Below are positions 43,914-62,788 of a DNA stretch of 64,000 bases, one piece after another. Where the stretch lies: the NCBI RefSeq assembly GCF_030384885.1, contig NZ_CP128613.1. The stretch is one strand, 5' to 3'. The position numbers were made by a program, and so were the translations under genes. The stretch is from Escherichia coli. GTDB lineage: Bacteria > Pseudomonadota > Gammaproteobacteria > Enterobacterales > Enterobacteriaceae. The notes under the pieces are model-generated. The model saw nothing but the letters and a program-made list of their open reading frames with translations. It ran no database searches and had not been told where the DNA came from. How positions within the stretch are numbered: position 1 is the stretch's first letter; each line of letters begins with the position of its first letter.

Positions 43914-44276
43914 ACTTGTAACATGGCCGGTACTTTACCCACCGGCTTGCTACCCTCTTGAAATATCCCACTAGTAATCATGCTTACTTAAGTCAAATTA
44001 ACCACACAATTAAACACACTTAGTTAAATAGCCATAAAACCCCTAATAAAAATGTATGAATATGAAAACCCTACGGTATTCGCTGTTTCCGAAAAATAAT
44101 TACGATGGGCTATACTCTTCTGAAGAACAGTAGCGTAGATTGAAACTGTCCTAAGTCGCTTATTTGTTTTCAGTATATCTTCATATTTCAGGAGAATATG
44201 TGCAGTTAGTCGATCTCGCACGTTGCGTTTCGTTTTTGATTCCGTCTGCTTTCCCAGCCTTATAAGGGTGTGAATT

Positions 44277-45659
44277 ATGGAGATGTATTTTAAAAGAATG
44301 AAAGATGAGTGGACCGGGCTTGTCGAACAAGCAGATCCGCTCATTCGTGCTAAAGCCGCGGAAATTGCCGTTGCGCATGCCCATTATCTGAGTATTGAGT
44401 TTTACCGAATTGTCCGTATCGACCCGCATGCCGAAGAATTCTTGAGTAATGAACAAGTTGAGCGGCAGCTGAAAAGTGCGATGGAACGCTGGATTATTAA
44501 TGTGCTTTCTGCCCAGGTTGACGATGTTGAAAGGCTAATACAAATCCAGCATACCGTCGCAGAAGTGCATGCCCGCATCGGCATTCCAGTAGAAATTGTC
44601 GAGATGGGGTTTCGGGTGCTGAAAAAAATCCTCTATCCGGTCATCTTCTCTTCGGATTATTCTGCCGCAGAAAAACTTCAGGTCTACCATTTCTCGATTA
44701 ACAGTATTGATATCGCGATGGAAGTCATGACCCGCGCGTTTACCTTTAGTGACAGTAGTGCCTCAAAAGAAGATGAAAACTATCGTATCTTCTCGTTACT
44801 GGAAAACGCCGAAGAAGAAAAAGAACGGCAAATAGCCTCAATCCTTTCATGGGAAATTGACATTATCTATAAAGTTCTGCTGGATTCTGATTTAGGCAGT
44901 AGTTTGCCTTTAAGCCAGGCTGATTTTGGCCTGTGGTTTAACCATAAAGGTCGACATTATTTTAGCGGCATTGCCGAAGTGGGTCATATCTCCCGCCTGA
45001 TTCAGGATTTCGACGGTATTTTTAATCAAACCATACGTAATACAAAAAATTTGAGCAACAAAACTCTGCGGGTGAGATTTTTATTACAGATAAGAAATAC
45101 CGTATCGCAAATTATTACCTTGCTGCGTGAATTATTTGAAGAAGTATCTCGCCACGAAGTGGGTATGGATGTACTGACAAAATTACTTAACCGCCGCTTC
45201 CTGCCGACCATCTTTAAACGCGAAATTGCCCATGCCAACCGGACCGGAACCCCCCTGTCAGTGCTGATTATTGACGTTGATAAATTCAAAGAGATCAACG
45301 ATACGTGGGGCCATAACACCGGTGATGAAATTTTGCGTAAAGTTTCTCAGGCCTTTTATGACAACGTCCACAGTAGTGATTATGTTTTTCGTTACGGGGG
45401 AGATGAATTTATCATTGTTTTGACTGAAGCTTCTGAAAACGAAACGTTACGTACCGCAGAACGTATTCGCAGTCGGGTGGAGAAAACCAAACTGAAAGCC
45501 GCAAACGGCGAAGATATTGCCCTCTCACTTTCCATCGGTGCCGCCATGTTTAATGGTCATCCTGACTATGAGCGCCTCATTCAAATAGCCGATGAAGCTC
45601 TGTATATCGCCAAAAGACGAGGTAGAAACCGTGTTGAACTCTGGAAAGCCAGTCTTTAG
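44277..45659 (+). CDS. dosC: Oxygen-sensing diguanylate cyclase DosC
   Basis: 460 aa; GGDEF motif (RYGGDEFIIVL). Confidence 0.9.
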   Translation: MEMYFKRMKDEWTGLVEQADPLIRAKAAEIAVAHAHYLSIEFYRIVRIDPHAEEFLSNEQVERQLKSAMERWIINVLSAQVDDVERLIQIQHTVAEVHARIGIPVEIVEMGFRVLKKILYPVIFSSDYSAAEKLQVYHFSINSIDIAMEVMTRAFTFSDSSASKEDENYRIFSLLENAEEEKERQIASILSWEIDIIYKVLLDSDLGSSLPLSQADFGLWFNHKGRHYFSGIAEVGHISRLIQDFDGIFNQTIRNTKNLSNKTLRVRFLLQIRNTVSQIITLLRELFEEVSRHEVGMDVLTKLLNRRFLPTIFKREIAHANRTGTPLSVLIIDVDKFKEINDTWGHNTGDEILRKVSQAFYDNVHSSDYVFRYGGDEFIIVLTEASENETLRTAERIRSRVEKTKLKAANGEDIALSLSIGAAMFNGHPDYERLIQIADEALYIAKRRGRNRVELWKASL

Positions 45660-45683
45660 ATGCGCCAGGATGCAGAGGTAATC

Positions 45684-48083
45684 ATGAAGCTAACCGATGC
45701 GGATAATGCCGCCGATGGCATTTTTTTCCCCGCCCTTGAGCAAAATATGATGGGCGCGGTGTTAATTAACGAAAATGATGAAGTGATGTTTTTCAACCCC
45801 GCCGCAGAGAAGCTCTGGGGATACAAACGTGAAGAAGTCATTGGCAATAACATTGATATGCTGATTCCGCGGGATTTGCGTCCTGCGCATCCTGAATATA
45901 TCCGTCACAACCGTGAAGGCGGTAAAGCGCGCGTCGAGGGGATGAGTCGGGAGCTGCAGCTGGAGAAAAAAGACGGCAGTAAAATCTGGACCCGTTTTGC
46001 GCTATCGAAAGTGAGCGCCGAGGGTAAAATTTATTACCTGGCGCTGGTACGGGATGCCAGCGTAGAAATGGCGCAAAAAGAACAGATCCGACAATTGATT
46101 ATTGCTGTTGACCATCTCGACCGACCGGTGATTGTCCTCGATCCGGAACGCCATATTGTGCAGTGCAATCGCGCATTTACCGAAATGTTTGGTTACTGCA
46201 TTAGCGAAGCCAGCGGTATGCAGCCCGATACACTCCTGAACATTCCTGAATTCCCTGCCGATAACCGCATTCGTTTACAACAGTTGCTATGGAAAACCGC
46301 CCGCGATCAGGATGAATTTCTGCTGTTGACGCGCACCGGTGAAAAAATCTGGATTAAAGCCTCTATCAGCCCGGTCTATGACGTACTCGCACATCTTCAA
46401 AACCTGGTAATGACTTTCTCGGATATCACCGAAGAACGGCAAATCCGCCAGCTTGAAGGCAATATTCTCGCCGCCATGTGCAGCAGCCCGCCATTTCATG
46501 AAATGGGGGAAATCATTTGTCGTAACATCGAATCTGTTCTCAACGAATCGCATGTTTCGCTGTTCGCGCTGCGCAACGGGATGCCGATACACTGGGCGTC
46601 ATCTTCGCACGGTACAGAAGTTCAAAATGCGCAAAGCTGGTCAGCGACCATTCGTCAGCGTGATGGCGCACCGGCGGGGATCCTGCAAATTAAAACCTCG
46701 TCAGGAGCAGAAACCAGCGCCTTTATCGAACGCGTGGCAGATATCAGCCAGCATATGGCCGCGCTGGCGCTGGAACAGGAAAAAAGCCGTCAGCATATTG
46801 AACAACTCATCCAATTTGATCCGATGACCGGTCTGCCAAATCGCAATAACCTGCACAATTACCTCGATGACCTGGTCGACAAAGCCGTCTCTCCGGTGGT
46901 CTATCTCATCGGTGTTGACCATATTCAGGATGTGATTGATAGCCTTGGCTATGCGTGGGCCGATCAGGCATTGCTGGAAGTGGTCAATCGCTTTCGTGAA
47001 AAACTCAAACCGGATCAGTATCTCTGTCGTATCGAAGGTACGCAGTTTGTCCTCGTGAGCCTGGAAAACGACGTCAGTAACATTACCCAAATCGCCGATG
47101 AGCTACGGAATGTGGTCAGCAAGCCGATAATGATTGACGATAAACCATTCCCGCTCACCTTGAGCATTGGCATCAGCTACGACGTGGGTAAAAACCGCGA
47201 TTACCTGCTCTCCACTGCCCATAACGCGATGGATTATATTCGCAAGAATGGCGGTAACGGCTGGCAGTTCTTCAGCCCGGTGATGAACGAAATGGTGAAA
47301 GAACGATTGATATTAGGCGCAGCGCTGAAAGAAGCGATTAGCAATAACCAACTGAAACTGGTTTACCAGCCACAAATCTTCGCAGAAACGGGTGAACTGT
47401 ACGGCATCGAAGCCCTTGCTCGCTGGCACGATCCTCTGCATGGTCATGTGCCCCCTTCACGGTTTATTCCTCTCGCAGAAGAGATTGGCGAAATCGAAAA
47501 TATTGGGCGCTGGGTCATCGCGGAAGCTTGCCGTCAGTTAGCAGAATGGCGTAGCCAGAATATTCATATTCCAGCGTTATCCGTTAACTTGTCTGCGCTG
47601 CACTTCCGCAGTAATCAGCTGCCTAATCAGGTGTCTGATGCAATGCAAGTCTGGGGCATTGACGGCCACCAGCTAACGGTGGAAATCACCGAAAGCATGA
47701 TGATGGAACACGATACGGAAATTTTTAAGCGCATCCAGATCCTGCGCGATATGGGCGTGGGTTTATCGGTAGATGATTTTGGCACGGGTTTTTCCGGGTT
47801 ATCCCGCTTAGTCAGTCTTCCGGTAACGGAAATCAAAATTGACAAAAGTTTTGTTGATCGTTGTCTGACTGAAAAACGCATCCTTGCCTTACTTGAAGCT
47901 ATTACCAGCATTGGGCAAAGCCTGAATTTAACCGTCGTAGCGGAAGGCGTCGAAACCAAAGAGCAATTTGAGATGCTACGCAAGATTCACTGTCGCGTTA
48001 TTCAGGGATATTTCTTTTCCCGCCCCCTGCCCGCCGAAGAAATTCCAGGCTGGATGAGTAGCGTGTTACCGCTGAAAATCTGA
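45684..48083 (+). CDS. dosP: Oxygen-sensing c-di-GMP phosphodiesterase DosP
   Basis: 799 aa from ATG 45684 (MKLTDADNAADGIFFPALEQ...); PAS plus EAL (EALAR) domains. Confidence 0.9.
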   Translation: MKLTDADNAADGIFFPALEQNMMGAVLINENDEVMFFNPAAEKLWGYKREEVIGNNIDMLIPRDLRPAHPEYIRHNREGGKARVEGMSRELQLEKKDGSKIWTRFALSKVSAEGKIYYLALVRDASVEMAQKEQIRQLIIAVDHLDRPVIVLDPERHIVQCNRAFTEMFGYCISEASGMQPDTLLNIPEFPADNRIRLQQLLWKTARDQDEFLLLTRTGEKIWIKASISPVYDVLAHLQNLVMTFSDITEERQIRQLEGNILAAMCSSPPFHEMGEIICRNIESVLNESHVSLFALRNGMPIHWASSSHGTEVQNAQSWSATIRQRDGAPAGILQIKTSSGAETSAFIERVADISQHMAALALEQEKSRQHIEQLIQFDPMTGLPNRNNLHNYLDDLVDKAVSPVVYLIGVDHIQDVIDSLGYAWADQALLEVVNRFREKLKPDQYLCRIEGTQFVLVSLENDVSNITQIADELRNVVSKPIMIDDKPFPLTLSIGISYDVGKNRDYLLSTAHNAMDYIRKNGGNGWQFFSPVMNEMVKERLILGAALKEAISNNQLKLVYQPQIFAETGELYGIEALARWHDPLHGHVPPSRFIPLAEEIGEIENIGRWVIAEACRQLAEWRSQNIHIPALSVNLSALHFRSNQLPNQVSDAMQVWGIDGHQLTVEITESMMMEHDTEIFKRIQILRDMGVGLSVDDFGTGFSGLSRLVSLPVTEIKIDKSFVDRCLTEKRILALLEAITSIGQSLNLTVVAEGVETKEQFEMLRKIHCRVIQGYFFSRPLPAEEIPGWMSSVLPLKI

Positions 48084-48095
48084 CAAATCCCTCTC

Positions 48096-48120
48096 GCCCG
48101 CACTCGCGGGTTTTCTTTTA
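48096..48120 (+). terminator. Rho-independent terminator after dosP
   Basis: CCCGC-ACT-CGCGGG stem followed by TTTTCTTTT. Confidence 0.65.
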
Positions 48121-48340
48121 ACGTGACACTGTCACTTAAATACTGTGATTTCAGCTACGATTCCGGGAGATTCCTTCCTTAACTTCCCCTCTTGCACCAA
48201 AACTGCACTACGCTGCACAAATGTTGATCAAAAGTTAAAAAATATAACTTTAAGCCAGCATTCTGGCGCTTATCCCGGCATGGCATGAGATCTGCATAAG
48301 CGGAAAGCGCAGCAATTTTTGTCTTATACAGGAACCGTTT

Positions 48341-48922
48341 ATGTCGGATACCACCGAACTGGTTGATTTAGCCGTGATCTTCCCTGATCTGGAGATCGAA
48401 TTGAAATACGCCTGCGCTGATAACATCACAGGTAAAGCTATTTATCAGCAAGCGCGTTGTCTGTTACACAAGGATGCGATTACCGCGCTGGCGAAAAGTA
48501 TCAGTATCGCCCAGCTGTCAGGCTTACAACTGGTGATTTACGATGCGTATCGCCCACAACAAGCACAGGCGATGTTGTGGCAAACCTGCCCAGACCCGCA
48601 ATATGTTGTTGATGTGACGGTCGGTTCTAATCACAGCCGTGGCACGGCGATCGACCTGACGCTTCGTGATGAGCACGGGAACATCCTCGATATGGGCGCA
48701 GAGTTCGATGAAATGCACGAACGTTCCCATGCTTACCATCCTTCCGTCCCGCCCGCCGCTCAGCGCAATCGCCTGTTGCTGAATGCGATTATGACTGGCG
48801 GTGGCTTTGTCGGTATCCCGAGCGAATGGTGGCACTTCGAATTACCCCAGGCAGCGAGTTACCCACTACTCGCTGATCAATTCACCTGTTTTATATCCCC
48901 TGGCACACAGCACGCCAGTTAA
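48341..48922 (+). CDS. ddpX: D-Ala-D-Ala dipeptidase
   Basis: 193 aa; VanX-like; first gene of ddp operon. Confidence 0.9.
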   Translation: MSDTTELVDLAVIFPDLEIELKYACADNITGKAIYQQARCLLHKDAITALAKSISIAQLSGLQLVIYDAYRPQQAQAMLWQTCPDPQYVVDVTVGSNHSRGTAIDLTLRDEHGNILDMGAEFDEMHERSHAYHPSVPPAAQRNRLLLNAIMTGGGFVGIPSEWWHFELPQAASYPLLADQFTCFISPGTQHAS

Positions 48923-48935
48923 TCAGGAAACTGTC

Positions 48936-50486
48936 ATGAATAGATCGATTTCGTTTCGTCCTACATTGCTCGCGATCGTCCTTGCCACAACAATGCCGGT
49001 TGCGCACGCCGCCGTACCGAAAGATATGCTGGTGATCGGTAAAGCTGCCGACCCACAAACCCTCGACCCGGCGGTAACAATTGATAATAACGACTGGACA
49101 GTGACCTACCCGTCTTATCAGCGACTGGTTCAGTACAAAACGGACGGTGATAAAGGCTCAACAGACGTTGAAGGCGATCTGGCGAGTAGCTGGAAAGCGT
49201 CTGACGATCAAAAAGAGTGGACGTTCACCCTGAAGGACAATGCTAAATTTGCCGATGGCACACCCGTCACTGCCGAAGCAGTAAAACTCTCTTTTGAGCG
49301 GTTACTAAAAATCGGTCAGGGGCCAGCAGAAGCATTTCCCAAAGATTTAAAGATTGATGCTCCCGACGAACATACGGTGAGGTTTACCCTTAGCCAGCCA
49401 TTCGCACCGTTCCTCTACACGCTGGCGAATGACGGTGCATCCATTATCAATCCGGCGGTCTTAAAAGAACATGCGGCCGATGATGCCCGTGGTTTCCTCG
49501 CGCAAAATACCGCTGGCTCCGGACCGTTTATGCTGAAAAGCTGGCAAAAAGGTCAGCAATTAGTTCTGGTGCCAAATCCGCATTACCCCGGCAATAAACC
49601 GAACTTCAAACGGGTATCGGTAAAAATTATCGGTGAAAGTGCCTCCCGTCGCCTGCAGCTCTCCCGTGGCGACATTGACATTGCCGATGCGCTGCCGGTG
49701 GATCAACTCAACGCCCTGAAGCAGGAAAACAAAGTCAACGTGGCAGAGTATCCGTCACTGCGCGTCACCTATCTGTATCTCAATAACAGCAAAGCGCCAC
49801 TTAATCAGGCGGATCTGCGTCGGGCCATTTCCTGGTCTACCGATTATCAGGGTATGGTTAACGGCATTCTGAGCGGTAACGGAAAACAAATGCGCGGCCC
49901 GATTCCGGAAGGCATGTGGGGATACGATGCGACGGCAATGCAATACAACCATGACGAAACGAAAGCCAAAGCCGAATGGGATAAAGTGACGAGCAAACCC
50001 ACTAGCCTGACGTTTCTCTACTCCGATAACGATCCGAACTGGGAACCTATTGCTCTGGCAACACAATCCAGCCTCAACAAGCTGGGCATCAATGTGAAGC
50101 TGGAAAAGCTGGCGAACGCCACCATGCGCGACAGAGTGGGTAAAGGTGATTACGACATCGCGATTGGCAACTGGAGTCCGGATTTTGCCGACCCGTATAT
50201 GTTTATGAATTACTGGTTTGAGTCCGACAAAAAAGGTCTGCCGGGTAACCGCTCGTTCTATGAAAACAGTGAGGTCGATAAGTTACTGCGCAATGCGCTA
50301 GCGACCACCGACCAGACGCAGCGTACCCGGGACTACCAGCAGGCACAGAAAATCGTCATTGATGACGCTGCTTATGTGTATCTGTTCCAGAAAAACTACC
50401 AACTGGCGATGAACAAAGAGGTGAAAGGCTTTGTGTTCAATCCCATGCTGGAACAGGTCTTCAATATCAATACCATGAGTAAATAA
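48936..50486 (+). CDS. ddpA: D,D-dipeptide ABC transporter periplasmic binding protein
   Basis: 516 aa from ATG 48936 (AGGAA RBS; signal peptide MNRSISFRPTLLAIVLATTMPVAHA). Confidence 0.9.
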   Translation: MNRSISFRPTLLAIVLATTMPVAHAAVPKDMLVIGKAADPQTLDPAVTIDNNDWTVTYPSYQRLVQYKTDGDKGSTDVEGDLASSWKASDDQKEWTFTLKDNAKFADGTPVTAEAVKLSFERLLKIGQGPAEAFPKDLKIDAPDEHTVRFTLSQPFAPFLYTLANDGASIINPAVLKEHAADDARGFLAQNTAGSGPFMLKSWQKGQQLVLVPNPHYPGNKPNFKRVSVKIIGESASRRLQLSRGDIDIADALPVDQLNALKQENKVNVAEYPSLRVTYLYLNNSKAPLNQADLRRAISWSTDYQGMVNGILSGNGKQMRGPIPEGMWGYDATAMQYNHDETKAKAEWDKVTSKPTSLTFLYSDNDPNWEPIALATQSSLNKLGINVKLEKLANATMRDRVGKGDYDIAIGNWSPDFADPYMFMNYWFESDKKGLPGNRSFYENSEVDKLLRNALATTDQTQRTRDYQQAQKIVIDDAAYVYLFQKNYQLAMNKEVKGFVFNPMLEQVFNINTMSK

Positions 50487-50487
50487 C

Positions 50488-51510
50488 GTGACCTTCTGGA
50501 GTATTTTACGCCAACGCTGCTGGGGGCTGGTGCTCGTGGTGGCGGGCGTCTGTGTGATTACGTTTATTATCTCGCACCTGATCCCCGGCGACCCGGCGCG
50601 GTTACTGGCGGGTGACCGCGCCAGCGATGCTATCGTGGATAATATTCGCCAGCAACTGGGACTGGACCAGCCACTGTACGTACAGTTTTACCGCTACGTC
50701 AGCGACCTGTTTCAGGGTGACCTGGGAACATCCATTCGTACCGGGCGTCCGGTGCTGGAAGAGTTGCGCATATTTTTCCCGGCGACGCTGGAACTGGCAT
50801 TTTGCGCCCTGCTGCTGGCACTCCTGGTTGGTATCCCGCTGGGCATACTCTCTGCAGTCTGGCGAAATCGCTGGCTGGATCATCTGGTGCGAATAATGGC
50901 CATTACCGGAATCTCCACACCTGCGTTCTGGCTTGGGCTGGGCGTCATTGTGCTGTTTTATGGTCATCTGCAAATTCTTCCCGGCGGCGGAAGGCTTGAT
51001 GACTGGCTGGATCCACCAACGCACGTTACCGGCTTTTATCTGCTCGATGCGCTGCTTGAAGGCAACGGTGAAGTCTTCTTCAATGCGCTGCAACATCTCA
51101 TCTTACCGGCATTAACGCTGGCGTTCGTTCACCTGGGGATTGTCGCTCGCCAGATCCGCTCAGCTATGCTGGAACAATTGAGTGAAGACTACATTCGTAC
51201 CGCCCGGGCCAGCGGCTTGCCCGGCTGGTATATCGTTTTATGTTATGCGCTACCCAATGCGTTGATCCCCTCGATTACCGTATTGGGGCTGGCGCTGGGC
51301 GATTTGTTGTATGGCGCAGTGCTCACCGAAACCGTTTTTGCCTGGCCCGGAATGGGTGCATGGGTAGTAACATCAATACAGGCGCTCGACTTCCCGGCAG
51401 TGATGGGCTTTGCCGTCGTGGTTTCATTTGCTTATGTGCTGGTCAACCTGGTGGTGGATTTGCTCTATTTGTGGATTGATCCGCGTATCGGACGTGGAGG
51501 TGATGAATGA
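50488..51510 (+). CDS. ddpB: D,D-dipeptide ABC transporter permease
   Basis: 340 aa polytopic membrane protein; operon position. Confidence 0.9.
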   Translation: MTFWSILRQRCWGLVLVVAGVCVITFIISHLIPGDPARLLAGDRASDAIVDNIRQQLGLDQPLYVQFYRYVSDLFQGDLGTSIRTGRPVLEELRIFFPATLELAFCALLLALLVGIPLGILSAVWRNRWLDHLVRIMAITGISTPAFWLGLGVIVLFYGHLQILPGGGRLDDWLDPPTHVTGFYLLDALLEGNGEVFFNALQHLILPALTLAFVHLGIVARQIRSAMLEQLSEDYIRTARASGLPGWYIVLCYALPNALIPSITVLGLALGDLLYGAVLTETVFAWPGMGAWVVTSIQALDFPAVMGFAVVVSFAYVLVNLVVDLLYLWIDPRIGRGGDE

Positions 51511-52403
51511 TGCTAAGCGAGGAAACGTCCGTCGTACGCCCACCAAAACAAACGCGATTTAACGGTGCAAAACTGGTATGGATGCTGAAAGGCAGTCCGC
51601 TCACCGTGACCGGCGCAGTCATCATTGTATTAATGCTATTGATGATGATTTTTTCACCGTGGCTGGCGACGCATGATCCCAACGCCATTGATTTAACTGC
51701 CCGCCTTTTGCCGCCTTCTGCGGCGCACTGGTTTGGCACCGATGAAGTGGGACGCGATCTGTTTAGCCGCGTACTGGTCGGCAGTCAGCAATCAATTCTC
51801 GCCGGATTAGTGGTGGTCGCCATTGCGGGTATGATGGGTTCGCTACTCGGGTGTCTATCCGGTGTGCTTGGCGGACGCGCAGACGCGATCATCATGCGCA
51901 TCATGGACATTATGCTGTCGATTCCTTCGCTGGTGCTGACAATGGCGCTGGCTGCCGCACTTGGACCGAGTTTGTTTAACGCCATGCTGGCGATTGCTAT
52001 CGTGCGAATCCCGTTTTATGTGCGCCTGGCGCGGGGGCAAACATTAGTTGTCCGCCAGTACACTTTCGTTCAGGCGGCGAAAACCTTCGGTGCGTCACGC
52101 TGGCATCTGATCAACTGGCATATTTTACGTAACTCCCTGCCGCCGCTGATTGTGCAGGCATCGCTGGATATTGGTAGCGCGATTTTAATGGCCGCCACGT
52201 TGGGATTTATTGGCCTGGGTGCTCAACAACCGAGTGCTGAATGGGGGGCGATGGTGGCGAATGGTCGCAACTATGTGCTCGATCAATGGTGGTATTGCGC
52301 ATTTCCGGGGGCAGCGATTTTGCTTACCGCCGTCGGGTTCAATCTCTTTGGTGATGGTATTCGCGATCTGCTTGACCCGAAAGCAGGAGGAAAGCAGTCA
52401 TGA
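51507..52403 (+). CDS. ddpC: D,D-dipeptide ABC transporter permease
   Basis: 298 aa; 4-nt overlap with ddpB. Confidence 0.9.
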   Translation: MMLSEETSVVRPPKQTRFNGAKLVWMLKGSPLTVTGAVIIVLMLLMMIFSPWLATHDPNAIDLTARLLPPSAAHWFGTDEVGRDLFSRVLVGSQQSILAGLVVVAIAGMMGSLLGCLSGVLGGRADAIIMRIMDIMLSIPSLVLTMALAAALGPSLFNAMLAIAIVRIPFYVRLARGQTLVVRQYTFVQAAKTFGASRWHLINWHILRNSLPPLIVQASLDIGSAILMAATLGFIGLGAQQPSAEWGAMVANGRNYVLDQWWYCAFPGAAILLTAVGFNLFGDGIRDLLDPKAGGKQS

Positions 52404-53386
52404 CCCAACCCGTTCTGGACATTCAACAACTGCATTTGAGTTTCTCCGGTTTTAACGGCGACGTTCACGCGCTCAACAATGTGTCATTGAAAATCAACCG
52501 CGGTGAAATTGTCGGTCTGGTGGGAGAATCCGGCTCGGGTAAATCAGTCACTGCAATGTTGATTATGCGTCTGTTACCGACGGGCAGTTATTGCGTACAT
52601 CGGGGACATATTTCACTGCTGGGAGAAGATGCTCTTAACGCTCGGGAAAAACAGCTTCGTCAGTGGCGCGGCGCACGAGTGGCGATGATCTTTCAGGAAC
52701 CGATGACCGCCCTAAATCCGACACGTCGAATAGGTCTTCAGATGATGGACGTGATCCGCCATCATCAACCAATAAGTCGTCGGGAAGCCAGAGCTAAAGC
52801 GATTGCCCTGCTGGAAGAGATGCAAATCCCGGATGCCGTGGAAGTTATGTCGCGCTATCCGTTTGAGCTTTCAGGTGGTATGCGCCAGCGGGTAATGATT
52901 GCGCTGGCATTCTCCTGCGAGCCGCAATTGATTATTGCCGACGAACCGACTACGGCGCTGGACGTCACGGTACAGTTGCAGGTACTGCGTCTGCTTAAAC
53001 ATAAAGCCCGCGCCAGTGGAACTGCGGTACTGTTCATCAGCCATGATATGGCCGTGGTGTCGCAACTGTGCGATAGCGTTTACGTGATGTATGCCGGAAG
53101 CGTGATCGAGAGCGGTATGACGGCAGACGTTATCCATCATCCCCGGCATCCGTATACCATTGGTTTGCTGCAATGCGCACCGGAACATGGAATACCACGC
53201 CAGCCATTACCCGCCATTCCAGGGACGGTACCAAACCTCACCCATTTGCCTGACGGCTGCGCTTTTCGCGATCGTTGCTATGCGGCAGGTACACAGTGTG
53301 AAAACGTCCCGGCGCTGACAGCGTGTGGTGACAACAACCACCGCTGCGCCTGTTGGTATCCTCAGCAGGAGGTCATTAGTGTCTGA
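52400..53386 (+). CDS. ddpD: D,D-dipeptide ABC transporter ATPase
   Basis: 328 aa; Walker A GESGSGKS. Confidence 0.9.
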   Translation: MTQPVLDIQQLHLSFSGFNGDVHALNNVSLKINRGEIVGLVGESGSGKSVTAMLIMRLLPTGSYCVHRGHISLLGEDALNAREKQLRQWRGARVAMIFQEPMTALNPTRRIGLQMMDVIRHHQPISRREARAKAIALLEEMQIPDAVEVMSRYPFELSGGMRQRVMIALAFSCEPQLIIADEPTTALDVTVQLQVLRLLKHKARASGTAVLFISHDMAVVSQLCDSVYVMYAGSVIESGMTADVIHHPRHPYTIGLLQCAPEHGIPRQPLPAIPGTVPNLTHLPDGCAFRDRCYAAGTQCENVPALTACGDNNHRCACWYPQQEVISV

Positions 53387-54305
53387 CACGTTATTAACGT
53401 TACGCGACGTCCATATCAATTTCCCGGCCCGAAAAAACTGGCTTGGTAAAACTACGGAACATGTTCATGCCATCAATGGTATTGATTTACAGATCCGTCG
53501 TGGTGAAACCTTAGGGATCGTCGGTGAGTCAGGCTGCGGCAAAAGCACCCTCGCGCAGCTTTTAATGGGTATGCTGCAACCGAGCCACGGGCAGTACATC
53601 CGTTCAGGATCACAACGCATTATGCAGATGGTGTTTCAGGACCCGCTCTCTTCGCTTAATCCGCGCTTACCGGTGTGGCGCATCATCACGGAACCGCTCT
53701 GGATTGCTAAGCGTAGTAGTGAACAACAGCGGCGAGCGTTGGCAGAGGAGCTGGCTGTGCAGGTGGGTATTCGTCCGGAGTATCTCGACCGCTTGCCTCA
53801 TGCGTTCTCAGGCGGGCAGCGGCAACGTATCGCCATTGCCAGAGCACTCTCTTCGCAGCCTGACGTGATTGTGCTTGATGAGCCCACCTCGGCGCTGGAT
53901 ATCTCCGTGCAGGCGCAGATCCTCAATTTACTGGTAACGCTACAGGAAAATCGCGGGCTGACTTATGTGCTGATTTCACACAATGTCTCGGTGATACGTC
54001 ATATGAGCGATCGGGTGGCGGTGATGTATCTCGGACAGATTGTTGAACTAGGAGACGCGCAACAGGTGCTGACAGCTCCGGCACATCCATACACCAGATT
54101 ATTGCTGGATTCCCTCCCCGCCATTGATAAACCGCTGGAGGAAGAATGGGCATTGCGTAAAACGGAACTACCAGGAAACCGCACGTTGCCGCCGGGCTGT
54201 TTTTTCCGTGAACGTTGCCCTCTGGCAACCCACGGATGTGAAGTCCGGCAATCATTAACAATAAGGGAGGACGGACGTGAGATCCGGTGCTGGCGGGCGC
54301 TGTAG
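53379..54305 (+). CDS. ddpF: D,D-dipeptide ABC transporter ATPase
   Basis: 308 aa from GTG 53379 (AGGAGG RBS), overlapping ddpD stop; Walker A GESGCGKS. Confidence 0.85.
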   Translation: MSDTLLTLRDVHINFPARKNWLGKTTEHVHAINGIDLQIRRGETLGIVGESGCGKSTLAQLLMGMLQPSHGQYIRSGSQRIMQMVFQDPLSSLNPRLPVWRIITEPLWIAKRSSEQQRRALAEELAVQVGIRPEYLDRLPHAFSGGQRQRIAIARALSSQPDVIVLDEPTSALDISVQAQILNLLVTLQENRGLTYVLISHNVSVIRHMSDRVAVMYLGQIVELGDAQQVLTAPAHPYTRLLLDSLPAIDKPLEEEWALRKTELPGNRTLPPGCFFRERCPLATHGCEVRQSLTIREDGREIRCWRAL

Positions 54306-54342
54306 AGACGCGGCATCCGGCTATTGCATGTCTGTGGAAACG

Positions 54343-55233
54343 TTATGCGTCATAGGTTTTTTTTAACGTTTCCATCAACGCTTGCGCCGCAGTAGAAAGC
54401 TTATGGTGTGACGAACGCAGAACGCCTACCCGTCGCTCAATCACCGGATTATCCAGTTCCAGACACACTGCGCCCAATTCGCTCATCTGCCTGCGGCACA
54501 GTGCAGGCACAGCGCTGCCCCCCAAACCGTTTGCCACCAGCCGCCCAACCGTAACCAGTTGATGGCTTTCCAGCGCCACTTCCAGTTGCGTTCCACTTTG
54601 TGCCAATTCCTCTTCCAGCATCAACCTGACGGCTGACGGTCGCTGGAGGGTGATAAAATCGAGCGTCAGCAAATCCCGCCAGCTCACGCGTTGCCGATTT
54701 GCCAGTCGGGAATCGGCTGGAACAATAGCAACAAACCGATCCACGCCCAGCGGGATAAAATGCAAATGGCCGCAATAGTCAGGTTCAAAGGCAATCCCCA
54801 TCTCCACGCGCCCTTCACTCACCATTTCGATTACCAGCTCATTCACCACATCGTGCACAGTGACGTTAATCCCTGAATAACAATCGCGGAAGGTTTTCAG
54901 CACCGGAGGCAAAACGTTGGCCGCAAATGACGGCATCGCTGCCACTGAGACTTTGCCCCGCCTGAGCGTGAATCGCTGACGCATGGCCTCTTCGGTGTTA
55001 TCCCAGTCAGCCAGCAAAGGCCGTGCCATCGACAATAGCGTTTCCCCCTCCTGGGTTAACGTCACTTTTCGCGTAGTACGCAGCAGTAAAGCGCCCCCTA
55101 AGGCATCTTCCAGTCCTTTAATGGCAAGACTTAGCGCAGGCTGCGACATATTCAGCCGTTCACTGGCATGGGCAAAGTTCAGAGTGTGAGCTACCGCTAA
55201 AAACGCGCGTAACTGTTTGATGCTCATTTTCAT
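54343..55233 (-). CDS. LysR-family transcriptional regulator (296 aa), divergent from CoA-transferase operon
   Basis: N-terminal LysR HTH (MSQPALSLAIKGLEDALGG); occupies the position where osmC is expected. Confidence 0.85.
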   Translation of the reverse strand: MKMSIKQLRAFLAVAHTLNFAHASERLNMSQPALSLAIKGLEDALGGALLLRTTRKVTLTQEGETLLSMARPLLADWDNTEEAMRQRFTLRRGKVSVAAMPSFAANVLPPVLKTFRDCYSGINVTVHDVVNELVIEMVSEGRVEMGIAFEPDYCGHLHFIPLGVDRFVAIVPADSRLANRQRVSWRDLLTLDFITLQRPSAVRLMLEEELAQSGTQLEVALESHQLVTVGRLVANGLGGSAVPALCRRQMSELGAVCLELDNPVIERRVGVLRSSHHKLSTAAQALMETLKKTYDA

Positions 55234-55374
55234 CTGGTATTCCGTTAACTTGTTGAATACATTTAATTAACATTATATTTATAAATAATACAAATGAATG
55301 AGTCACAAATTTAAAATTAACAAATCATTTTTTGCCCTTAATGATGTTGGAAAGGACAACTGGAGGGCAACTGT

Positions 55375-56082
55375 ATGGCTGGGCTGGATAAACGGGTCGC
55401 TACGTATCACGAGGCGCTTGAAGGACTTACCAATGAGATGACGATTCTGGCGGGAGGTTTTGGCCTGTGCGGCATCCCGGAGAATCTGATTGCTGAAGTT
55501 CGCCACCGTGGAGTAACCGCATTGACGGTGGTTTCCAATAACTGTGGCGTAGACGGTTTTGGACTGGGTGTACTGCTGGAAACCCGACAGATCCGTAAAG
55601 TCATCGCTTCTTATGTTGGCGAAAATGCTTTGTTTGAAAAACAGGTGCTTAACGGCGAACTGGAGGCGATTCTCACACCACAAGGAACCCTGGCAGAACA
55701 ACTGCGCGCAGGCGGCGCGGGCATCCCGGCGTTCTTTACTGCCACCGGTTACGGTACACCCGTTGCCGAAGGGAAAGAAGTCCGCGAATTCAACGGTCGC
55801 CCGTACATAATGGAACAGGCTATCACCGGTGATTTTGCCCTGGTCAAAGGCTGGAAAGCCGACTGGTACGGCAACGTGATTTATCGTCATACCGCGCAAA
55901 ACTTCAACCCACTGATGGCGGCTGCCGGAAAAATCACCGTGGTGGAAGTGGAAGAGATTGTGCCGCCTGGTGAACTTGATCCTGCCGCAATCCATACCCC
56001 AGGGATTTTTGTTAATCGCGTCATTCAGGGGCAATTTGAAAAACGCATTGAACAACGCACCCTTAGCCGCAAAGGAGCCTGA
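55375..56082 (+). CDS. 3-oxoacid (acetoacetate/succinyl-CoA) CoA-transferase subunit A
   Basis: 235 aa; strongly ScoA/OXCT-like ([47 protein letters not shown]). Confidence 0.85.
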
Positions 56083-56084
56083 CC

Positions 56085-56741
56085 ATGTTAACCCGTGAAC
56101 AAATGGCGATGCGAGTCGCCCGCGAATTGCGCGATGGCTATTACGTCAATCTCGGCATTGGTATCCCGACCCTGGTGGCAAACTACATTCCTGACGGGAT
56201 GGATGTGATGTTGCAGTCAGAAAACGGTTTGCTGGGAATGGGCGCATTTCCTACGGAAGATGAACTGGACGCCGACATGATTAACGCCGGTAAACAAACC
56301 GTTACCGCACGGAAAGGCGCGGCAATTTTCGATTCGGCGCAATCTTTCGCCATGATCCGTGGCGGCCATGTGGATCTGACTGTGCTTGGCGCATTTGAAG
56401 TGGATGTGAATGGCAACATTGCCTCATGGATGATCCCCGGCAAGATGGTTAAAGGCATGGGCGGTGCCATGGATCTGGTTGCCGGTGCCGAGAATATTAT
56501 TGTGGTAATGACCCACGCCTCCAAATCCGGCGAATCCAAACTGCTTCCCGACTGTACCCTGCCATTGACTGGCGTCGGCTGCATCAAACGCGTCTTAACC
56601 GACCTTGCTCTGCTGGAAATTGCTGACGGCGCTTTCATTCTGCGCGAGCGCGCGCCGGGAATCAGCGTTGCGGAAATCGTCGCCAAAACCGCCGGTAAGT
56701 TGTTTGTGCCGGAACATGTCCCGGAAATGCAATTCAACTGA
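56085..56741 (+). CDS. 3-oxoacid CoA-transferase subunit B
   Basis: 218 aa; adjacent and co-oriented with subunit A. Confidence 0.85.
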   Translation: MLTREQMAMRVARELRDGYYVNLGIGIPTLVANYIPDGMDVMLQSENGLLGMGAFPTEDELDADMINAGKQTVTARKGAAIFDSAQSFAMIRGGHVDLTVLGAFEVDVNGNIASWMIPGKMVKGMGGAMDLVAGAENIIVVMTHASKSGESKLLPDCTLPLTGVGCIKRVLTDLALLEIADGAFILRERAPGISVAEIVAKTAGKLFVPEHVPEMQFN

Positions 56742-56750
56742 GGAATCACC

Positions 56751-57956
56751 ATGCAGGACGTTGTTATTGTTGCCGCTACGCGCACGCCGATTGGCTGTTT
56801 TCATGGCGCTCTCGCACCACTTTCTGCGGTTGATCTCGGCGCTGCCACCATCCGTTCATTGCTGGAGAAAACCGCACTTGCAGCAGAACAGATCGATGAA
56901 GTGATTTTTGGTCAGGTCCTGACTGCCGGAAGCGGACAAAACCCAGCACGGCAATCGGCGCTCAAAGCCGGGTTAAGCCACGATACACCCGCCGTTACCA
57001 TCAACCTGGTATGTGGTTCCGGTTTGAAAGCCGTACACCAGGCCGTGCAGGCGATCCGCTGTGGTGATGCACAGATCATTATCGCAGGTGGCCAGGAAAG
57101 CATGAGCAACGCGCCCTATTTTATTGATGGCGCGCGGGCAGGTTTACGCCTCGGGCATACCAGCATGAAAGACAGCGTGGTTCATGACGGACTATGGGAT
57201 GCTTTCAATGATTACCACATGGGCATTACTGCAGAAAACCTGGCGCAAAAATATGCCATCAGTCGCGAGCGCCAGGACACATTCGCGCTACGTTCTCAGC
57301 AAAAAGCCGCTGCCGCAATGGAAGCCTGGCGCTTTGCAGACGAAATTACTCCGGTCAGCGTACCACAAGGTAAAAAACCACCACGCTGGGTAAATACCGA
57401 CGAACAACCACGTTCCGGGACGCAACTGGAAAAACTGGCGCAACTGAAACCGGCCTTTCTTCCGGGGGCAGGAAGCGTCACCGCGGGAAATGCCTCTTCC
57501 ATCAATGATGGTGCCGCCGCAGTCATGTTAATGCGCGCCAGCAAAGCTGCCGAACTTGGCCTCTCTGTGCTGGCTCGGGTGGCCGGTTATGCCGTTTCTG
57601 GCGTCGATCCTGCCTTTATGGGCATCGGTCCGGTCGTCGCTACCCGCGAATGTCTTAAGCGTTGCGGATGGACGCTGGAAGATATTGATCTTATTGAAGC
57701 AAACGAAGCTTTCGCAGCGCAGGCGCTGGCCGTTGGCGACGAACTGAACTGGGATAACGACAAAGTGAATGTTAACGGCGGCGCAATCGCACTTGGGCAT
57801 CCTATTGGCGCTTCTGGTTGCCGCATTCTGGTCACTCTCATTTATGAAATGGCGCGACGTAATGCGCAAAAAGGGCTGGCGACGCTGTGCGTCGGTGGCG
57901 GTCAGGGCGTGGCGCTGACGCTGGAAAGAACCACAGGAGAACACCATGCAAACTGA
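56751..57956 (+). CDS. Acetyl-CoA C-acetyltransferase (thiolase)
   Basis: 401 aa; AtoB-like along full length ([24 protein letters not shown]). Confidence 0.85.
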
Positions 57957-58869
57957 ACAATTTGCGGTACTGGGCGCCGGATTGATGGGCGTGGGGATTG
58001 CCACTCATTTCGCCCGCTTTGGTCATGATATCTGGCTGTACGATACCGAGCAGAGCCGGATTGCTGAAATCCCCGTAGTTGCAGCCGGGATTCTTGATGA
58101 ACTGATTAGCTGCGAACAGTTTACTGCCTCGGGAAAAGAGAATGTGCTTAAACGCCTTCACGGCACGACCTCTCTTGCTGACATCGCCGACTCGCAACTA
58201 CTGATTGAGGCGATCCCGGAGCGGCTTGAACTAAAACACGCATTATATGCCGAGCTTGAAACACTTATTTCTCCTGAGGCCATTGTCGCCAGCAATACCA
58301 GCGGTCTGCCGCCCGATGATCTGGCAGCGAAGATGCGCTACCCGCAACGACTGCTGATCGCCCATTTCTGGCATCCGCCGCACTTCATTCCACTTGTAGA
58401 GATTGTCCCCGGCAGCGTTACCGAGCCAAAGCATTTGCACTGGCTGCAACACTTGCTTGTGTCACTGCAACTGGAAGCTGTGTTGCTGGATCGCGCTGCG
58501 CCAGGATTTGTCGGCAACCGTCTGCAATTTGCACTGTTGCGTGAAGCCCTGCATATCGTAAAAAGCGGCATCGCCAGTGCCGAAGTAGTCGATCAGGTCA
58601 TGCGCGCCTCGCTTGGGCGACGTTATGCCATGGTCGGCCCGCTGGAGGCCGCCGACATGACCGGACTTTCGACGGTGCAGGATATTTGTCGCCATCTTCT
58701 CCCTGAACTGGCGACTGGCAGCGACATGATGTCGTTAGTTGCCGAAAAAGTGGAACGTGGAGACATCGGCGTACGTAGCGGTCAGGGATTTTACCGCTGG
58801 GATGAATCGCGGAAGCAGTACATCCAGCAGCGTCGGGAACATCAGCTTCGCTTCGCCCTGAAACCCTAA
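57946..58869 (+). CDS. 3-hydroxyacyl/3-hydroxybutyryl-CoA dehydrogenase
   Basis: 307 aa; N-terminal Rossmann GxGxxG ([12 protein letters not shown]); overlaps thiolase stop by 11 nt. Confidence 0.8.
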
Positions 58870-58914
58870 CTTCTCTCGCTGTACCCACTATAACAACGAT
58901 ATTGAGGAGTCCCG

Positions 58915-60306
58915 ATGAGTGTATTAATCGCCCTTGCCGCGCTTGGGCTGCTAATGCTGGCAGCCTATCGCGGATACAGCGTTATCCTTTTTGCCCCCAT
59001 CGCGGCATTAGGCGCTGTTCTTGTCACCGATCCGGGGGCTGTTGGCCCAGCATTTACCGGTCTGTTCATGGAAAAAATGGTCGGCTTCGTGAAATTGTAC
59101 TTCCCGGTGTTTCTGCTCGGGGCCGTGTTCGGAAAACTGATTGAGCTTTCAGGATTTTCTCGTTCGATTGTCGCTGCTGCAATCAACATTCTCGGGCGGC
59201 GGCATGCGATTCCGGTGATTGTGCTGGTATGCGCATTACTCACCTATGGCGGCGTGTCGCTGTTTGTGGTGGCATTTGCCGTTTATCCGTTCGCGGCTGA
59301 ATTGTTCCGACAGAGTAATATCCCCAAACGGCTTATACCGGCAACGGTGGCCCTCGGAGCATTCTCTTTTACTATGGACGCTCTGCCCGGCACACCTCAA
59401 ATCCAGAACATTATTCCCACCAGTTTCTTTGGCACCAACGCCTGGGCCGCGCCGTGGCTGGGGCTCATTGGTTCACTGTTTATCATTGCCGTCGGGCTTA
59501 TCTATCTGGAGCGACAGCGTCGTAAAGCGCATGCAAAAAATGAAGGTTACGGCACAGAGTTACTTAATGAACCTGAAACGCCAGACAACATCAATTTGCC
59601 GAATCCACTCATTGCGATTTCACCGTTGATTCTGGTGGGGCTGTTGAACTTGTTGTTTACCTGGTGGATCCCTGTTTGGTACGGTGCGAGTCACCAACTG
59701 GAGTTGCCAGGACTTGCCGCCCCGATCACTACAGATGTCGCCAAAATCACCGCTATCTGGGCCGTTGAAGCAGCGCTCATTGCCGGAATTTTGCTGGTGG
59801 TGATTTTCGGATATCGCAATATTCATGGAAGACTGGCAGAAGGAAGCCGTACTGCGGTGGGTGGCGCAATTCTGGCCGCGATGAACACCGCCTCAGAATA
59901 TGGCTTCGGTGCGGTTATCGCCGCTCTGCCCGGTTTTCTGGTGCTCTCAAAGGCGCTGGCTGCCATTCCAGATCCATTACTCAACGAAGCCATCAGCATC
60001 ACCACGCTTGCCGGCATTACCGGTTCAGCGTCCGGCGGGATGAGTATTGCTCTTGCGGCTATGTCCGACACTTTTATTGCCGCTGCGCACGCTGCCAATA
60101 TTCCACTGGAAGTTTTTCACCGCGTGGCATCTATGGCCAGTGGCGGCATGGATACATTGCCCCATAACGGCGCAGTGATCACTCTGCTGGCAATTACTGG
60201 GCTGAGTCACCGTCAGGCTTACGGCGGTATCTTCGCAATTACGATCATTAAAAGTCTGGCCGTGCTGTTTATCATCGGCGTGTACTACACCACCGGCATT
60301 GTCTAA
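58915..60306 (+). CDS. Polytopic permease (GntP-like family; candidate 3-hydroxybutyrate / short-chain acid transporter)
   Basis: 463 aa, highly hydrophobic with central hydrophilic loop; family assignment by resemblance only. Confidence 0.6.
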   Translation: MSVLIALAALGLLMLAAYRGYSVILFAPIAALGAVLVTDPGAVGPAFTGLFMEKMVGFVKLYFPVFLLGAVFGKLIELSGFSRSIVAAAINILGRRHAIPVIVLVCALLTYGGVSLFVVAFAVYPFAAELFRQSNIPKRLIPATVALGAFSFTMDALPGTPQIQNIIPTSFFGTNAWAAPWLGLIGSLFIIAVGLIYLERQRRKAHAKNEGYGTELLNEPETPDNINLPNPLIAISPLILVGLLNLLFTWWIPVWYGASHQLELPGLAAPITTDVAKITAIWAVEAALIAGILLVVIFGYRNIHGRLAEGSRTAVGGAILAAMNTASEYGFGAVIAALPGFLVLSKALAAIPDPLLNEAISITTLAGITGSASGGMSIALAAMSDTFIAAAHAANIPLEVFHRVASMASGGMDTLPHNGAVITLLAITGLSHRQAYGGIFAITIIKSLAVLFIIGVYYTTGIV

Positions 60307-60317
60307 GGAGAATCATC

Positions 60318-60695
60318 ATGAATTTACAAGGTAAAACTGCGCTTGTGACGGGGTCCTCCAGCGGTATTGGACTCGGTATTGCTCAGACACTGGCAAAAGC
60401 CGGCGCGCAAGTGATCCTCAACGGCTTCGGTGATGTTGACGCGGCAATCAATGGAGTTTCTCGTGTGGGTAAAACGCCTGGCTATCATGAGGCAGACCTC
60501 AGCGATGAATCGCAAATTGTCAGCATGATGGCCTACGCACGGAGGGAATTTGGCGGTGTGGACATTCTGGTGAATAACGCCGGGATCCAATTGGAGCTGA
60601 CCAAATGGGTGGAAGCTTCTGATAACGACATCCTCAGTGATATCTACCAGCAAACGATCAATTATGTGGTCAGTGGCCAGCACCCTACGCTTTAA
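60318..60695 (+). pseudogene. Chimeric ORF: truncated SDR (3-hydroxybutyrate-dehydrogenase-like N-terminus, about 95 aa) fused in frame to apparent 3' end of bdm
   Basis: N-terminus GKTALVTGSSSGIGLGIA...DILVNNAGIQ is SDR-like but stops at about 95 aa (full SDR about 250 aa); the last 34 aa are not SDR-like and lie directly upstream of sra where bdm is expected. Confidence 0.6.
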
Positions 60696-60796
60696 GGTGC
60701 TATGCTTGATCGGCAACCTAATTTAGGGGTTTAGCACGTGTTTCTTCGCTACGGCGATGTTGTCCTTAAAACTAGCAACAGGATTGAGGAGTTAAA

Positions 60797-60934
60797 ATGA
60801 AATCGAACCGTCAGGCACGTCATATTCTTGGACTGGACCATAAAATTTCTAACCAGCGCAAAATAGTTACCGAAGGTGACAAATCCAGCGTGGTAAATAA
60901 CCCAACCGGCAGAAAACGCCCCGCTGAAAAGTAA
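60797..60934 (+). CDS. sra: Stationary-phase-induced ribosome-associated protein (45 aa)
   Basis: [45 protein letters not shown] matches recalled Sra; AGGAG RBS; below ORF-track cutoff. Confidence 0.85.
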
Positions 60935-60964
60935 TCTTTAACAATCAGTCCTCAATGACGATTA

Positions 60965-60999
60965 AACACCATTGCCTGCGCAATGGTGTTTTTGTTTTT
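60965..60999 (+). terminator. Rho-independent terminator after sra
   Basis: AACACCATTGC-CTGC-GCAATGGTGTT followed by TTTTGTTTTT. Confidence 0.8.
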
Positions 61000-61090
61000 A
61001 ACTGCTTTATACTTGGAGCCGACGCCCTGGCGGTAAAGCAAAGACGATAAAAGCACCCCAGGGATGGATATTCAAAAAAGAGTGAGTGAC

Positions 61091-62788
61091 ATGGAACCAA
61101 AAACAAAAAAACAGCGTTCGCTTTATATTCCTTACGCTGGCCCTGTACTGCTGGAATTTCCGTTGTTGAATAAAGGCAGCGCCTTCAGCATGGAAGAACG
61201 CCGTAACTTCAACCTGCTGGGGTTACTGCCGGAAGTGGTCGAAACCATCGAAGAACAAGCGGAACGCGCATGGATCCAGTATCAGGGATTCAAAACCGAA
61301 ATCGACAAACACATCTACCTGCGTAACATCCAGGACACCAACGAAACCCTCTTCTACCGTCTGGTAAACAATCATCTTGATGAGATGATGCCTGTTATTT
61401 ATACCCCAACCGTCGGCGCAGCCTGTGAGCGTTTTTCTGAGATCTACCGCCGTTCACGCGGCGTGTTTATCTCTTACCAGAACCGCCACAATATGGACGA
61501 TATTCTGCAAAACGTGCCGAACCATAATATTAAAGTGATTGTGGTGACTGACGGCGAACGTATTCTGGGGCTTGGTGACCAGGGCATCGGTGGGATGGGT
61601 ATTCCGATCGGTAAACTGTCGCTCTATACCGCCTGCGGCGGCATCAGCCCGGCGTATACACTGCCGGTGGTGCTGGATGTCGGGACGAACAACCAGCAGT
61701 TGCTTAACGACCCGCTGTATATGGGCTGGCGTAATCCACGTATCACTGACGACGAATACTATGAATTCGTGGATGAATTTATCCAGGCTGTGAAGCAACG
61801 CTGGCCGGACGTGTTATTGCAGTTTGAAGATTTTGCACAGAAAAACGCGATGCCGTTGCTTAACCGCTATCGCAATGAAATTTGTTCTTTTAACGATGAT
61901 ATTCAGGGCACCGCGGCGGTAACAGTCGGCACACTGATCGCAGCCAGCCGTGCGGCGGGCGGTCAGTTAAGCGAGAAAAAAATCGTCTTCCTCGGCGCAG
62001 GTTCAGCAGGATGCGGCATTGCGGAGATGATCATCGCCCAGACTCAGCGTGAAGGATTAAGCGAAGAAGCGGCGCGGCAGAAAGTCTTTATGGTCGATCG
62101 CTTTGGTCTGCTGACCGACAAGATGCCGAACCTGCTGCCTTTCCAGACCAAACTGGTGCAGAAGCGCGAAAATCTCAGTGACTGGGATACTGACAGCGAT
62201 GTGCTGTCATTGCTTGATGTGGTGCGCAATGTCAAACCGGATATTCTGATTGGCGTCTCAGGACAGACCGGGCTGTTTACGGAAGAGATCATCCGTGAGA
62301 TGCACAAACACTGTCCGCGTCCGATCGTGATGCCGCTGTCTAACCCGACTTCACGTGTGGAAGCCACACCGCAGGACATTATCGCCTGGACCGAAGGTAA
62401 CGCGCTGGTCGCCACTGGCAGCCCGTTTAATCCAGTGGTATGGAAAGATAAAATCTACCCTATCGCCCAGTGTAATAACGCCTTTATTTTCCCGGGCATC
62501 GGGCTGGGTGTTATTGCTTCCGGCGCGTCACGTATCACCGATGAGATGCTGATGTCGGCAAGCGAAACGCTTGCTCAGTATTCGCCGCTGGTACTGAACG
62601 GCGAAGGTCTGGTACTGCCGGAACTGAAAGATATTCAGAAAGTGTCCCGCGCAATTGCGTTTGCGGTTGGCAAAATGGCGCAGCAGCAAGGCGTGGCGGT
62701 GAAAACGTCTGCCGAAGCTCTGCAACAGGCCATTGATGATAACTTCTGGCAAGCCGAATACCGCGACTACCGCCGTACATCCATCTAA
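61091..62788 (+). CDS. maeA: NAD-dependent malic enzyme
   Basis: 565 aa from ATG 61091 ([23 protein letters not shown]...); matches recalled MaeA. Confidence 0.95.

Follow-up and report, generated by a model that had tools for sequence, protein, structure and literature searches.

Upstream of sra in Escherichia coli, an open reading frame (ORF) of 125 codons begins like an SDR oxidoreductase and ends in a sequence of another kind. Does it encode a new protein, is it what a deletion left of two genes, or does it serve to connect sra to another promoter? The locus lies in a 64,000-nucleotide stretch of the E. coli chromosome (contig NZ_CP128613.1), here called the window, in the ddp-osmC-bdm-sra-maeA-adhP neighbourhood. 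A preliminary description of the window had proposed that the ORF joins a 5′ fragment of an SDR gene in frame to the 3′ end of bdm.

Results

The ORF joins the 5′ part of hbdh to the 3′ end of bdm

The proposed chimera was confirmed for both halves by BLASTP and by NCBIfam searches. The ORF (60318–60695) starts with ATG and encodes 125 amino acids, of which residues 1–91 are identical (91/91, 100%; BLASTP E = 6e-64) to the 256-residue 3-hydroxybutyrate dehydrogenase (HBDH) of E. coli 2013C-4282. At the DNA level, positions 60318–60591 are 100% identical to positions 8119–8392 of the 2013C-4282 locus (L001). The SDR identity of this half was rightly recognized in the preliminary description, although its length had been put at 95 codons and is in fact 91 codons plus 1 nt. 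As read from the translation, TGxxxGxG occupies T11–G18 at the Rossmann N-terminus and NNAG occupies N86–G89.

Residues 93–125 (ELTKW...QHPTL) are identical to residues 39–71 of K-12 Bdm (33/33, 100%; BLASTP), so the suggested alignment of the last 34 codons with K-12 bdm returned a perfect match, and the ORF ends at bdm's own stop codon. The corresponding DNA is that of 2013C-4282 bdm, with 1 substitution relative to K-12. The NCBIfam Bdm equivalog PRK11436 covers residues 85–125 (E = 3.8e-23) and, independently of it, NCBIfam HBDH models match residues 1–92. Chance is excluded as the source of the two matches because both lie far beyond the chance level. Between the two halves, codon 92 is a hybrid: TTG (Leu) combines the T of hbdh codon 92 (TAT) with the TG of bdm codon 38 (ATG).

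Translation signals had also been said to be retained, and the AAGGAG of the SDR gene is indeed present at 60305–60310, overlapping the stop codon of the GntP permease gene upstream. On the opposite strand, an ORF of 130 amino acids with a TTG start (60324–60716) was regarded as a shadow of the coding-strand ORF. The features of the locus are collected in Table 1.

Table 1. Positions in the window of the chimeric ORF, its surroundings and the prophage genes.
Feature	Position	Strand	Basis
LysR-family regulator gene, divergent	54343..55233	-	ORF and L001 annotation
Island genes: CoA transferase A and B, acetyl-CoA acetyltransferase, 3-hydroxyacyl-CoA dehydrogenase, GntP-family permease	55375..60306	+	ORFs; PGAP annotation of 2013C-4282
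Shine–Dalgarno of hbdh (AAGGAG), retained	60305..60310	+	7 nt ahead of the ATG; read from sequence
Chimeric ORF hbdh′-′bdm, stop included	60318..60695	+	ORF list; BLASTP of both halves; NCBIfam
hbdh 5′ fragment: codons 1–91 and base 1 of codon 92	60318..60591	+	DNA identity
Deletion junction	60591..60592		Three-way alignment; parental identity ends exactly here on both sides
bdm 3′ fragment: final 2 nt of codon 38, codons 39–71, stop	60592..60695	+	Alignment
bdm-sra intergenic region, 101 bp, native	60696..60796	+	Identical to 2013C-4282; 1 substitution vs K-12
sra	60797..60934	+	NCBIfam PRK10057, 74.5 bits vs cutoff 35; annotated sra in matching genomes
Intrinsic terminator after sra, 12-bp stem and T-run	60964..61001	+	Terminator scans
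Prophage pIV-type secretin	562–1920 and 9137–10495		
Prophage pI/Zot-like morphogenesis protein	8128–9222; partial copy 33–647		
Prophage replication protein	4620–5714		
Prophage attachment/virion protein	6392–7786		

A blunt deletion of 1418 bp separates the window from its nearest relative

The nearest complete genome is that of E. coli 2013C-4282, which shows 0 SNPs against the window across 53556–62355; the sole difference in this interval is a deletion of 1418 bp. In 2013C-4282 the locus reads ddpF, LysR (opposite strand), CoA transferase A and B, acetyl-CoA acetyltransferase, 3-hydroxyacyl-CoA dehydrogenase, GntP permease, HBDH, osmC (opposite strand), bdm, sra, maeA and adhP. Both halves of the chimera map there to adjacent, co-oriented intact genes and the DNA between them is missing from the window, as expected of a chimeric pseudogene. 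The junction had been placed at about 60590–60600 and lies exactly between 60591 and 60592. Where the preliminary description had the chimera right, it was silent on the loss of 1418 bp, which takes in the whole of osmC and both divergent promoters between the two halves.

The absent sequence corresponds to L001 8393–9810, its first nucleotide being base 2 of HBDH codon 92 and its last being base 1 of bdm codon 38. On the HBDH side it takes in codons 92–256 (bar one base of codon 92), which form the catalytic two thirds of the enzyme; on the bdm side it takes in codons 1–37 and one base of codon 38. Between them it includes the entire osmC gene and the region from which osmC and bdm are divergently controlled, with both promoters. 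The bdm promoter described in PMC3946193 (TTGCCA-15-TATAAA) maps to L001 9624–9650, within the deleted segment. A REP-like perfect palindrome, GCCGGATGACGCGTCATCCGGC, at L001 8896–8917 between the convergent hbdh and osmC is deleted as well; the REP-like hairpin that follows hbdh in 2013C-4282 has a folding energy of −21.1 kcal/mol (z = −4.3). The 1418-bp segment was sought elsewhere in the window and was not found.

The junction is blunt, with 0 bp of microhomology. A homology-mediated deletion is ruled out by the 0 bp shared at the junction, and the best direct repeat nearby (8 nt, GACATTCT) is out of register. An origin by restriction cloning is likewise ruled out: GGATCC is native to hbdh, and CAATTG is made only by joining CAAT and TG. 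No FRT, lox or cassette scar was found at the junction. These features point to homology-independent end joining as the probable mechanism. In E. coli, illegitimate recombination or alternative end joining that needs no homology has reportedly been described by Ikeda and co-workers and by Chayot et al. 2010.

The ancestral order would have been ddpF, then the block of LysR, CoA transferase AB, thiolase, hydroxyacyl-CoA dehydrogenase, GntP permease and HBDH, then the hairpin, osmC, the promoters, bdm, sra and maeA. A single deletion would have joined hbdh and bdm, in frame by chance. As the two genes are independent of each other, 1 in 3 such joins is expected to be in frame, and the reading frame calls for no special explanation; the in-frame fusion gives no sign of selection.

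The deletion is derived, recent and found in one strain

With presence counted at a coverage of at least 80%, the osmC-bdm 5′ segment was found in 5399 of the 5426 complete E. coli genomes (99.5%), so that the window carries the derived, deleted state. Intact osmC-bdm also occurs in genomes that have no island upstream, such as K-12 and MRSN346647. The reverse polarity, in which the window would be ancestral and the other genomes would carry an insertion, is ruled out by the near-universal presence of full-length bdm and osmC, even in island-free genomes.

The hbdh-bdm junction was found by megablast in 0 of the 5426 complete genomes, and the junction 24-mer GCCGGGATCCAATTGGAGCTGACC had no exact match in JGI metagenome contigs or among 100,044 GTDB species representatives. 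The exact 125-residue chimera is absent from a collection of ~15 billion proteins. A full-length SDR carrying this C-terminus in other bacteria, which would have spoken against a local fusion, was not seen among the homologues checked: the best 120 of the 1502 homologues (E ≤ 1e-10) carry only SDR Pfam domains, and a Bdm tail is present in 0 of the 7 SDR homologues whose sequences were read. Across complete genomes, metagenome contigs, GTDB representatives and protein homologues, the chimeric architecture showed no conservation in other lineages. As far as the available data show, the deletion appears private to the source strain. It is taken to be very recent because, the deletion apart, no substitution separates the window from 2013C-4282 between 53556 and 62355. 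The hbdh-bdm junction is new to the databases searched, and the kind of event, a fusion or pseudogene generated by deletion, is ordinary and well known.

Beyond this interval, substitutions relative to 2013C-4282 are clustered. In the left flank, 12 of 15 fall within 130 bp of ddpD (window 52445–52574); in the right flank, all 12 of 12 fall within 154 bp of maeA (62356–62509). About 8.8 kb of perfect identity lie between the ddpD and maeA clusters. Such clustering is a pattern typical of short recombination tracts, as judged from the distribution of the substitutions.

The truncated enzyme belongs to an accessory island at a decaying locus

The hbdh 5′ fragment is presumed to have been the last gene of a tightly packed operon in a six-gene accessory island lying between ddpF and osmC (window 54343–60591), which is present in 226 of the 5426 complete E. 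coli genomes. From its gene content, including a 3-hydroxyacyl-CoA dehydrogenase that is also supported by NCBIfam, the island looks like a 3-hydroxybutyrate/acetoacetate utilisation cluster. Going by the annotated functions, HBDH presumably catalysed the first step of the island's use of 3-hydroxybutyrate.

Other decayed copies of the locus exist. Frameshifted HBDH alleles were found (P0003–P0005), and in E. coli MS20673 (NZ_CP082067.1, 1501303–1511426; L003) an IS1 stands directly upstream of a 5′-shortened sra (114 nt), with digH beyond it. By this arrangement, an IS1-bounded deletion has removed the digH-sra stretch in MS20673; in the window this stretch (42594–60796) contains the ddp genes, osmC and bdm. 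The frameshifted alleles and the MS20673 deletion indicate that strains can do without the locus and that it decays readily.

A further sequence is an ENA contig of 601 nt with a coverage of 1.3 (ERZ1024453 NODE_32512; L004, protein P0002), in which HBDH is joined after about codon 105 to an out-of-frame 5′ end of maeA. This may be an independent deletion of osmC, bdm and sra, or possibly a chimeric low-coverage contig.

The chimeric product lacks the SDR catalytic residues and half of Bdm

The full-length parental HBDH aligns end to end with the 3-hydroxybutyrate dehydrogenase of PDB 5yss (E = 1e-145), and also with 2q2q and 1wmb. By residue counting, its SDR catalytic tetrad consists of N111, S139, Y152 and K156, all of which lie past residue 91. 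In the chimera the Rossmann fold is cut after β4, just past the NNAG strand, and all later strands and the substrate-binding region are missing. The product thus has neither the catalytic tetrad nor the full Rossmann fold of ~250 residues that mark a classical SDR. Against NCBIfam, the HBDH half reaches 93.8 bits where the full-length cutoff is 258. The Bdm half reaches 81.6 bits where the curated cutoff is 136, and covers only profile positions 31–71 of 71 (PRK11436); judged by this profile match, the tail is a fragment of bdm and not a Bdm protein. No solved structure was found for Bdm, and we know of no autonomous function for its C-terminal half.

With no SDR catalytic residue left and the first half of Bdm missing, the ORF is most likely a translatable but non-functional remnant, that is, a chimeric pseudogene. 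The strong Shine–Dalgarno sequence and the in-frame fusion could allow some protein to accumulate, and such a product would presumably be unstable.

sra retains its native upstream DNA

SRA is a ribosome-associated stationary-phase protein. The ORF does sit where bdm precedes sra, as the preliminary description had it: the start of sra lies 101 bp beyond the ORF stop, the same spacing as in K-12. In all, the native DNA ahead of sra is preserved over 205 bp, with no difference from 2013C-4282 and 2 from K-12, and the Shine–Dalgarno sequence of sra (GAGGAG) is at 60786–60791. No significant RNA structure was found in the bdm-sra intergenic region (z = −0.17). A consensus promoter scan of 60592–60796 returned no sigma-70-like site, a result that is uninformative for a partly sigma-S-dependent promoter.

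According to Shimada et al. (PMC3946193), bdm and sra form one operon transcribed from the spacer between bdm and osmC, and sra has been reported to have its own promoter besides the bdm promoter (PMC10746276). The bdm promoter between the divergent osmC and bdm is deleted in the window, and transcription from it is lost. On the assumption that sra's own promoter is contained in the retained 205 bp, it is probably intact, and sra would probably still be expressed from it, free of the RcsB-dependent bdm promoter. In Table S2 of PMC10746276 (supplement 5), the 'sra-lacZ rev' oligo is identical to 'elaB-lacZ rev', apparently through a copy error, and because of this duplication the table does not show where the sra promoter fusion ends.

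A scan of 54300–61100 predicted a single intrinsic terminator on the plus strand, the one that follows sra (60964–60991), and this is the first one downstream of the island operon. Since, in addition, the hairpin after hbdh is gone, transcripts of the LysR-controlled island operon could plausibly run on into sra, and sra would probably receive such read-through as well. We infer this pattern of sra transcription in the source strain from the positions of promoters and terminators. The preliminary description had suggested that the fusion couples sra to a new promoter. The idea is reasonable and appears only partly needed; such coupling would not be required for sra expression, because sra has its own promoter and keeps its native 205 bp.

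Other features of the window

Positions 1–11276 are occupied by tandem copies of a filamentous (Inovirus-type) prophage with a unit of 8575 bp, of which 1–2701 are 100% identical to 8576–11276. Coverage of window positions 1–25000 by any complete E. coli genome stays at or below 70%, and the best-covering matches are ~95% identical. An ORF of 477 amino acids on the minus strand (12992–14425) contains about 11 tandem repeats of 60 nt (20 residues) at 13111–13770, whose identity to the reference copy is 61–75%. For this ORF, the only matches were PHROGs without a known function (phrog_21719, E = 1.5e-52). No known RNA families were found across the whole window.

Discussion

Taken together, we consider it likely that the ORF at 60318–60695 is the scar of one recent, strain-private deletion of 1418 bp, produced by homology-independent (illegitimate) end joining, and hence a chimeric remnant. 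This reading has to be set against three others. The deletion might be an artefact, whether an assembly or consensus error, a deletion arising in laboratory passage or an engineered one, as could be suspected from a junction that is unique among all collections searched and from flanks that otherwise equal those of a sequenced relative. Yet the endpoints contain no repeat at which an assembler could have collapsed the region, they fall off the gene boundaries, unlike those of an engineered knockout, and no FRT, lox or cassette scar accompanies them. The CAATTG at the junction combines native CAAT with TG, and in neither parent is the corresponding site a restriction site. The window moreover differs from 2013C-4282 in gene content over its first 25 kb, where it carries the tandem filamentous prophage, which indicates that the source strain is real and distinct. 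An artefact is therefore improbable. The deletion may also be a variant carried by only part of the population. Still less credence can be given to a new functional protein, in which the 125-residue product would fold and work either as a small NAD-binding domain or by way of the retained second half of Bdm. The intact ORF, its strong Shine–Dalgarno sequence and the complete dinucleotide-binding motif are compatible with it, and several NCBIfam SDR models align past residue 92, to about residue 121, where the tail from Bdm bears a weak resemblance to the helix that comes after NNAG in SDRs. These points are outweighed by the cut after β4, which leaves the product without N111, S139, Y152, K156 and the later strands, by the absence of any homologue of such architecture from 5.8 billion clusters, and by the fact that the C-terminal half of Bdm has no solved structure and is not known to act on its own. 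The event is also too recent for any selection signature.

The remaining alternative accepts the deletion and assigns it an adaptive value: it would have been selected for placing sra under the LysR-controlled ketone-body operon, with translation of the chimera shielding the read-through transcript from Rho-dependent polarity. Several features are in keeping with this. Between the island operon and the sra terminator no plus-strand terminator is predicted, the hairpin that formerly followed hbdh and the bdm promoter that normally co-drives sra are both deleted, and the in-frame fusion would keep ribosomes on the mRNA to 101 nt before sra. However, sra has a promoter of its own (PMC10746276) and its native 205 bp upstream, so that sra can do without a new one; the junction, with 0 flanking SNPs, is confined to a single strain and shows neither recurrence nor spread that would hint at selection; and an in-frame outcome is expected 1 time in 3 by chance. 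Selection of this kind is thus unlikely. The corresponding regulatory claim, that sra is rewired by co-transcription with the LysR-controlled 3-hydroxybutyrate/acetoacetate operon and that the chimeric ORF acts as a translated leader preventing polarity, is likewise improbable; if true, it would represent a natural promoter capture for a ribosome-associated factor.

If the ORF is the remnant of a deletion, the meaningful consequences are the losses of HBDH, OsmC and Bdm. OsmC is an organic-hydroperoxide peroxiredoxin. A single step removes this near-universal stress gene together with bdm and inactivates an accessory 3-hydroxybutyrate pathway. The source strain is predicted to have lost 3-hydroxybutyrate use, OsmC-dependent defence against organic peroxides, and the Rcs/osmotic induction of sra. 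Beyond that strain the event is of little importance; its interest is that of a clean, datable homology-independent deletion in E. coli, for which the ancestor-like sequence is known and the flanks carry 0 SNPs. For annotation, the ORF would be better flagged as a chimeric pseudogene than as an SDR oxidoreductase.

Comparison with known systems

The chimera can be compared with each of its parents. It shares with K-12 Bdm (b1481; PRK11436) the final 33 residues and the stop, and occupies the same position 101 bp upstream of sra. It differs in lacking residues 1–37 and the RcsB- and osmotically regulated bdm promoter, and in being translated from the hbdh start. With the bacterial D-3-hydroxybutyrate dehydrogenases (5yss, 2q2q, 1wmb; PRK12429/TIGR01963) it shares residues 1–91, which are those of the accessory-island HBDH with TGxxxGxG and NNAG, whereas the cut after β4 has taken away the N-S-Y-K tetrad and the substrate-binding region.

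As an event, the deletion resembles the MS20673 deletion and the frameshifted HBDH alleles, which also lose or inactivate hbdh, osmC or bdm. Those cases have other endpoints and mechanisms (IS1, small indels), and none of them makes an hbdh-bdm fusion. The closest parallel is with deletion-generated in-frame fusions and chimeric pseudogenes, of which the lacI-lacZ deletion fusions are the classical bacterial example. The features in common are a single deletion, two co-oriented genes, no homology at the junction and retention of the upstream translation signals. In contrast to the laboratory fusions, the event described here appears natural and private to one strain rather than selected in the laboratory.
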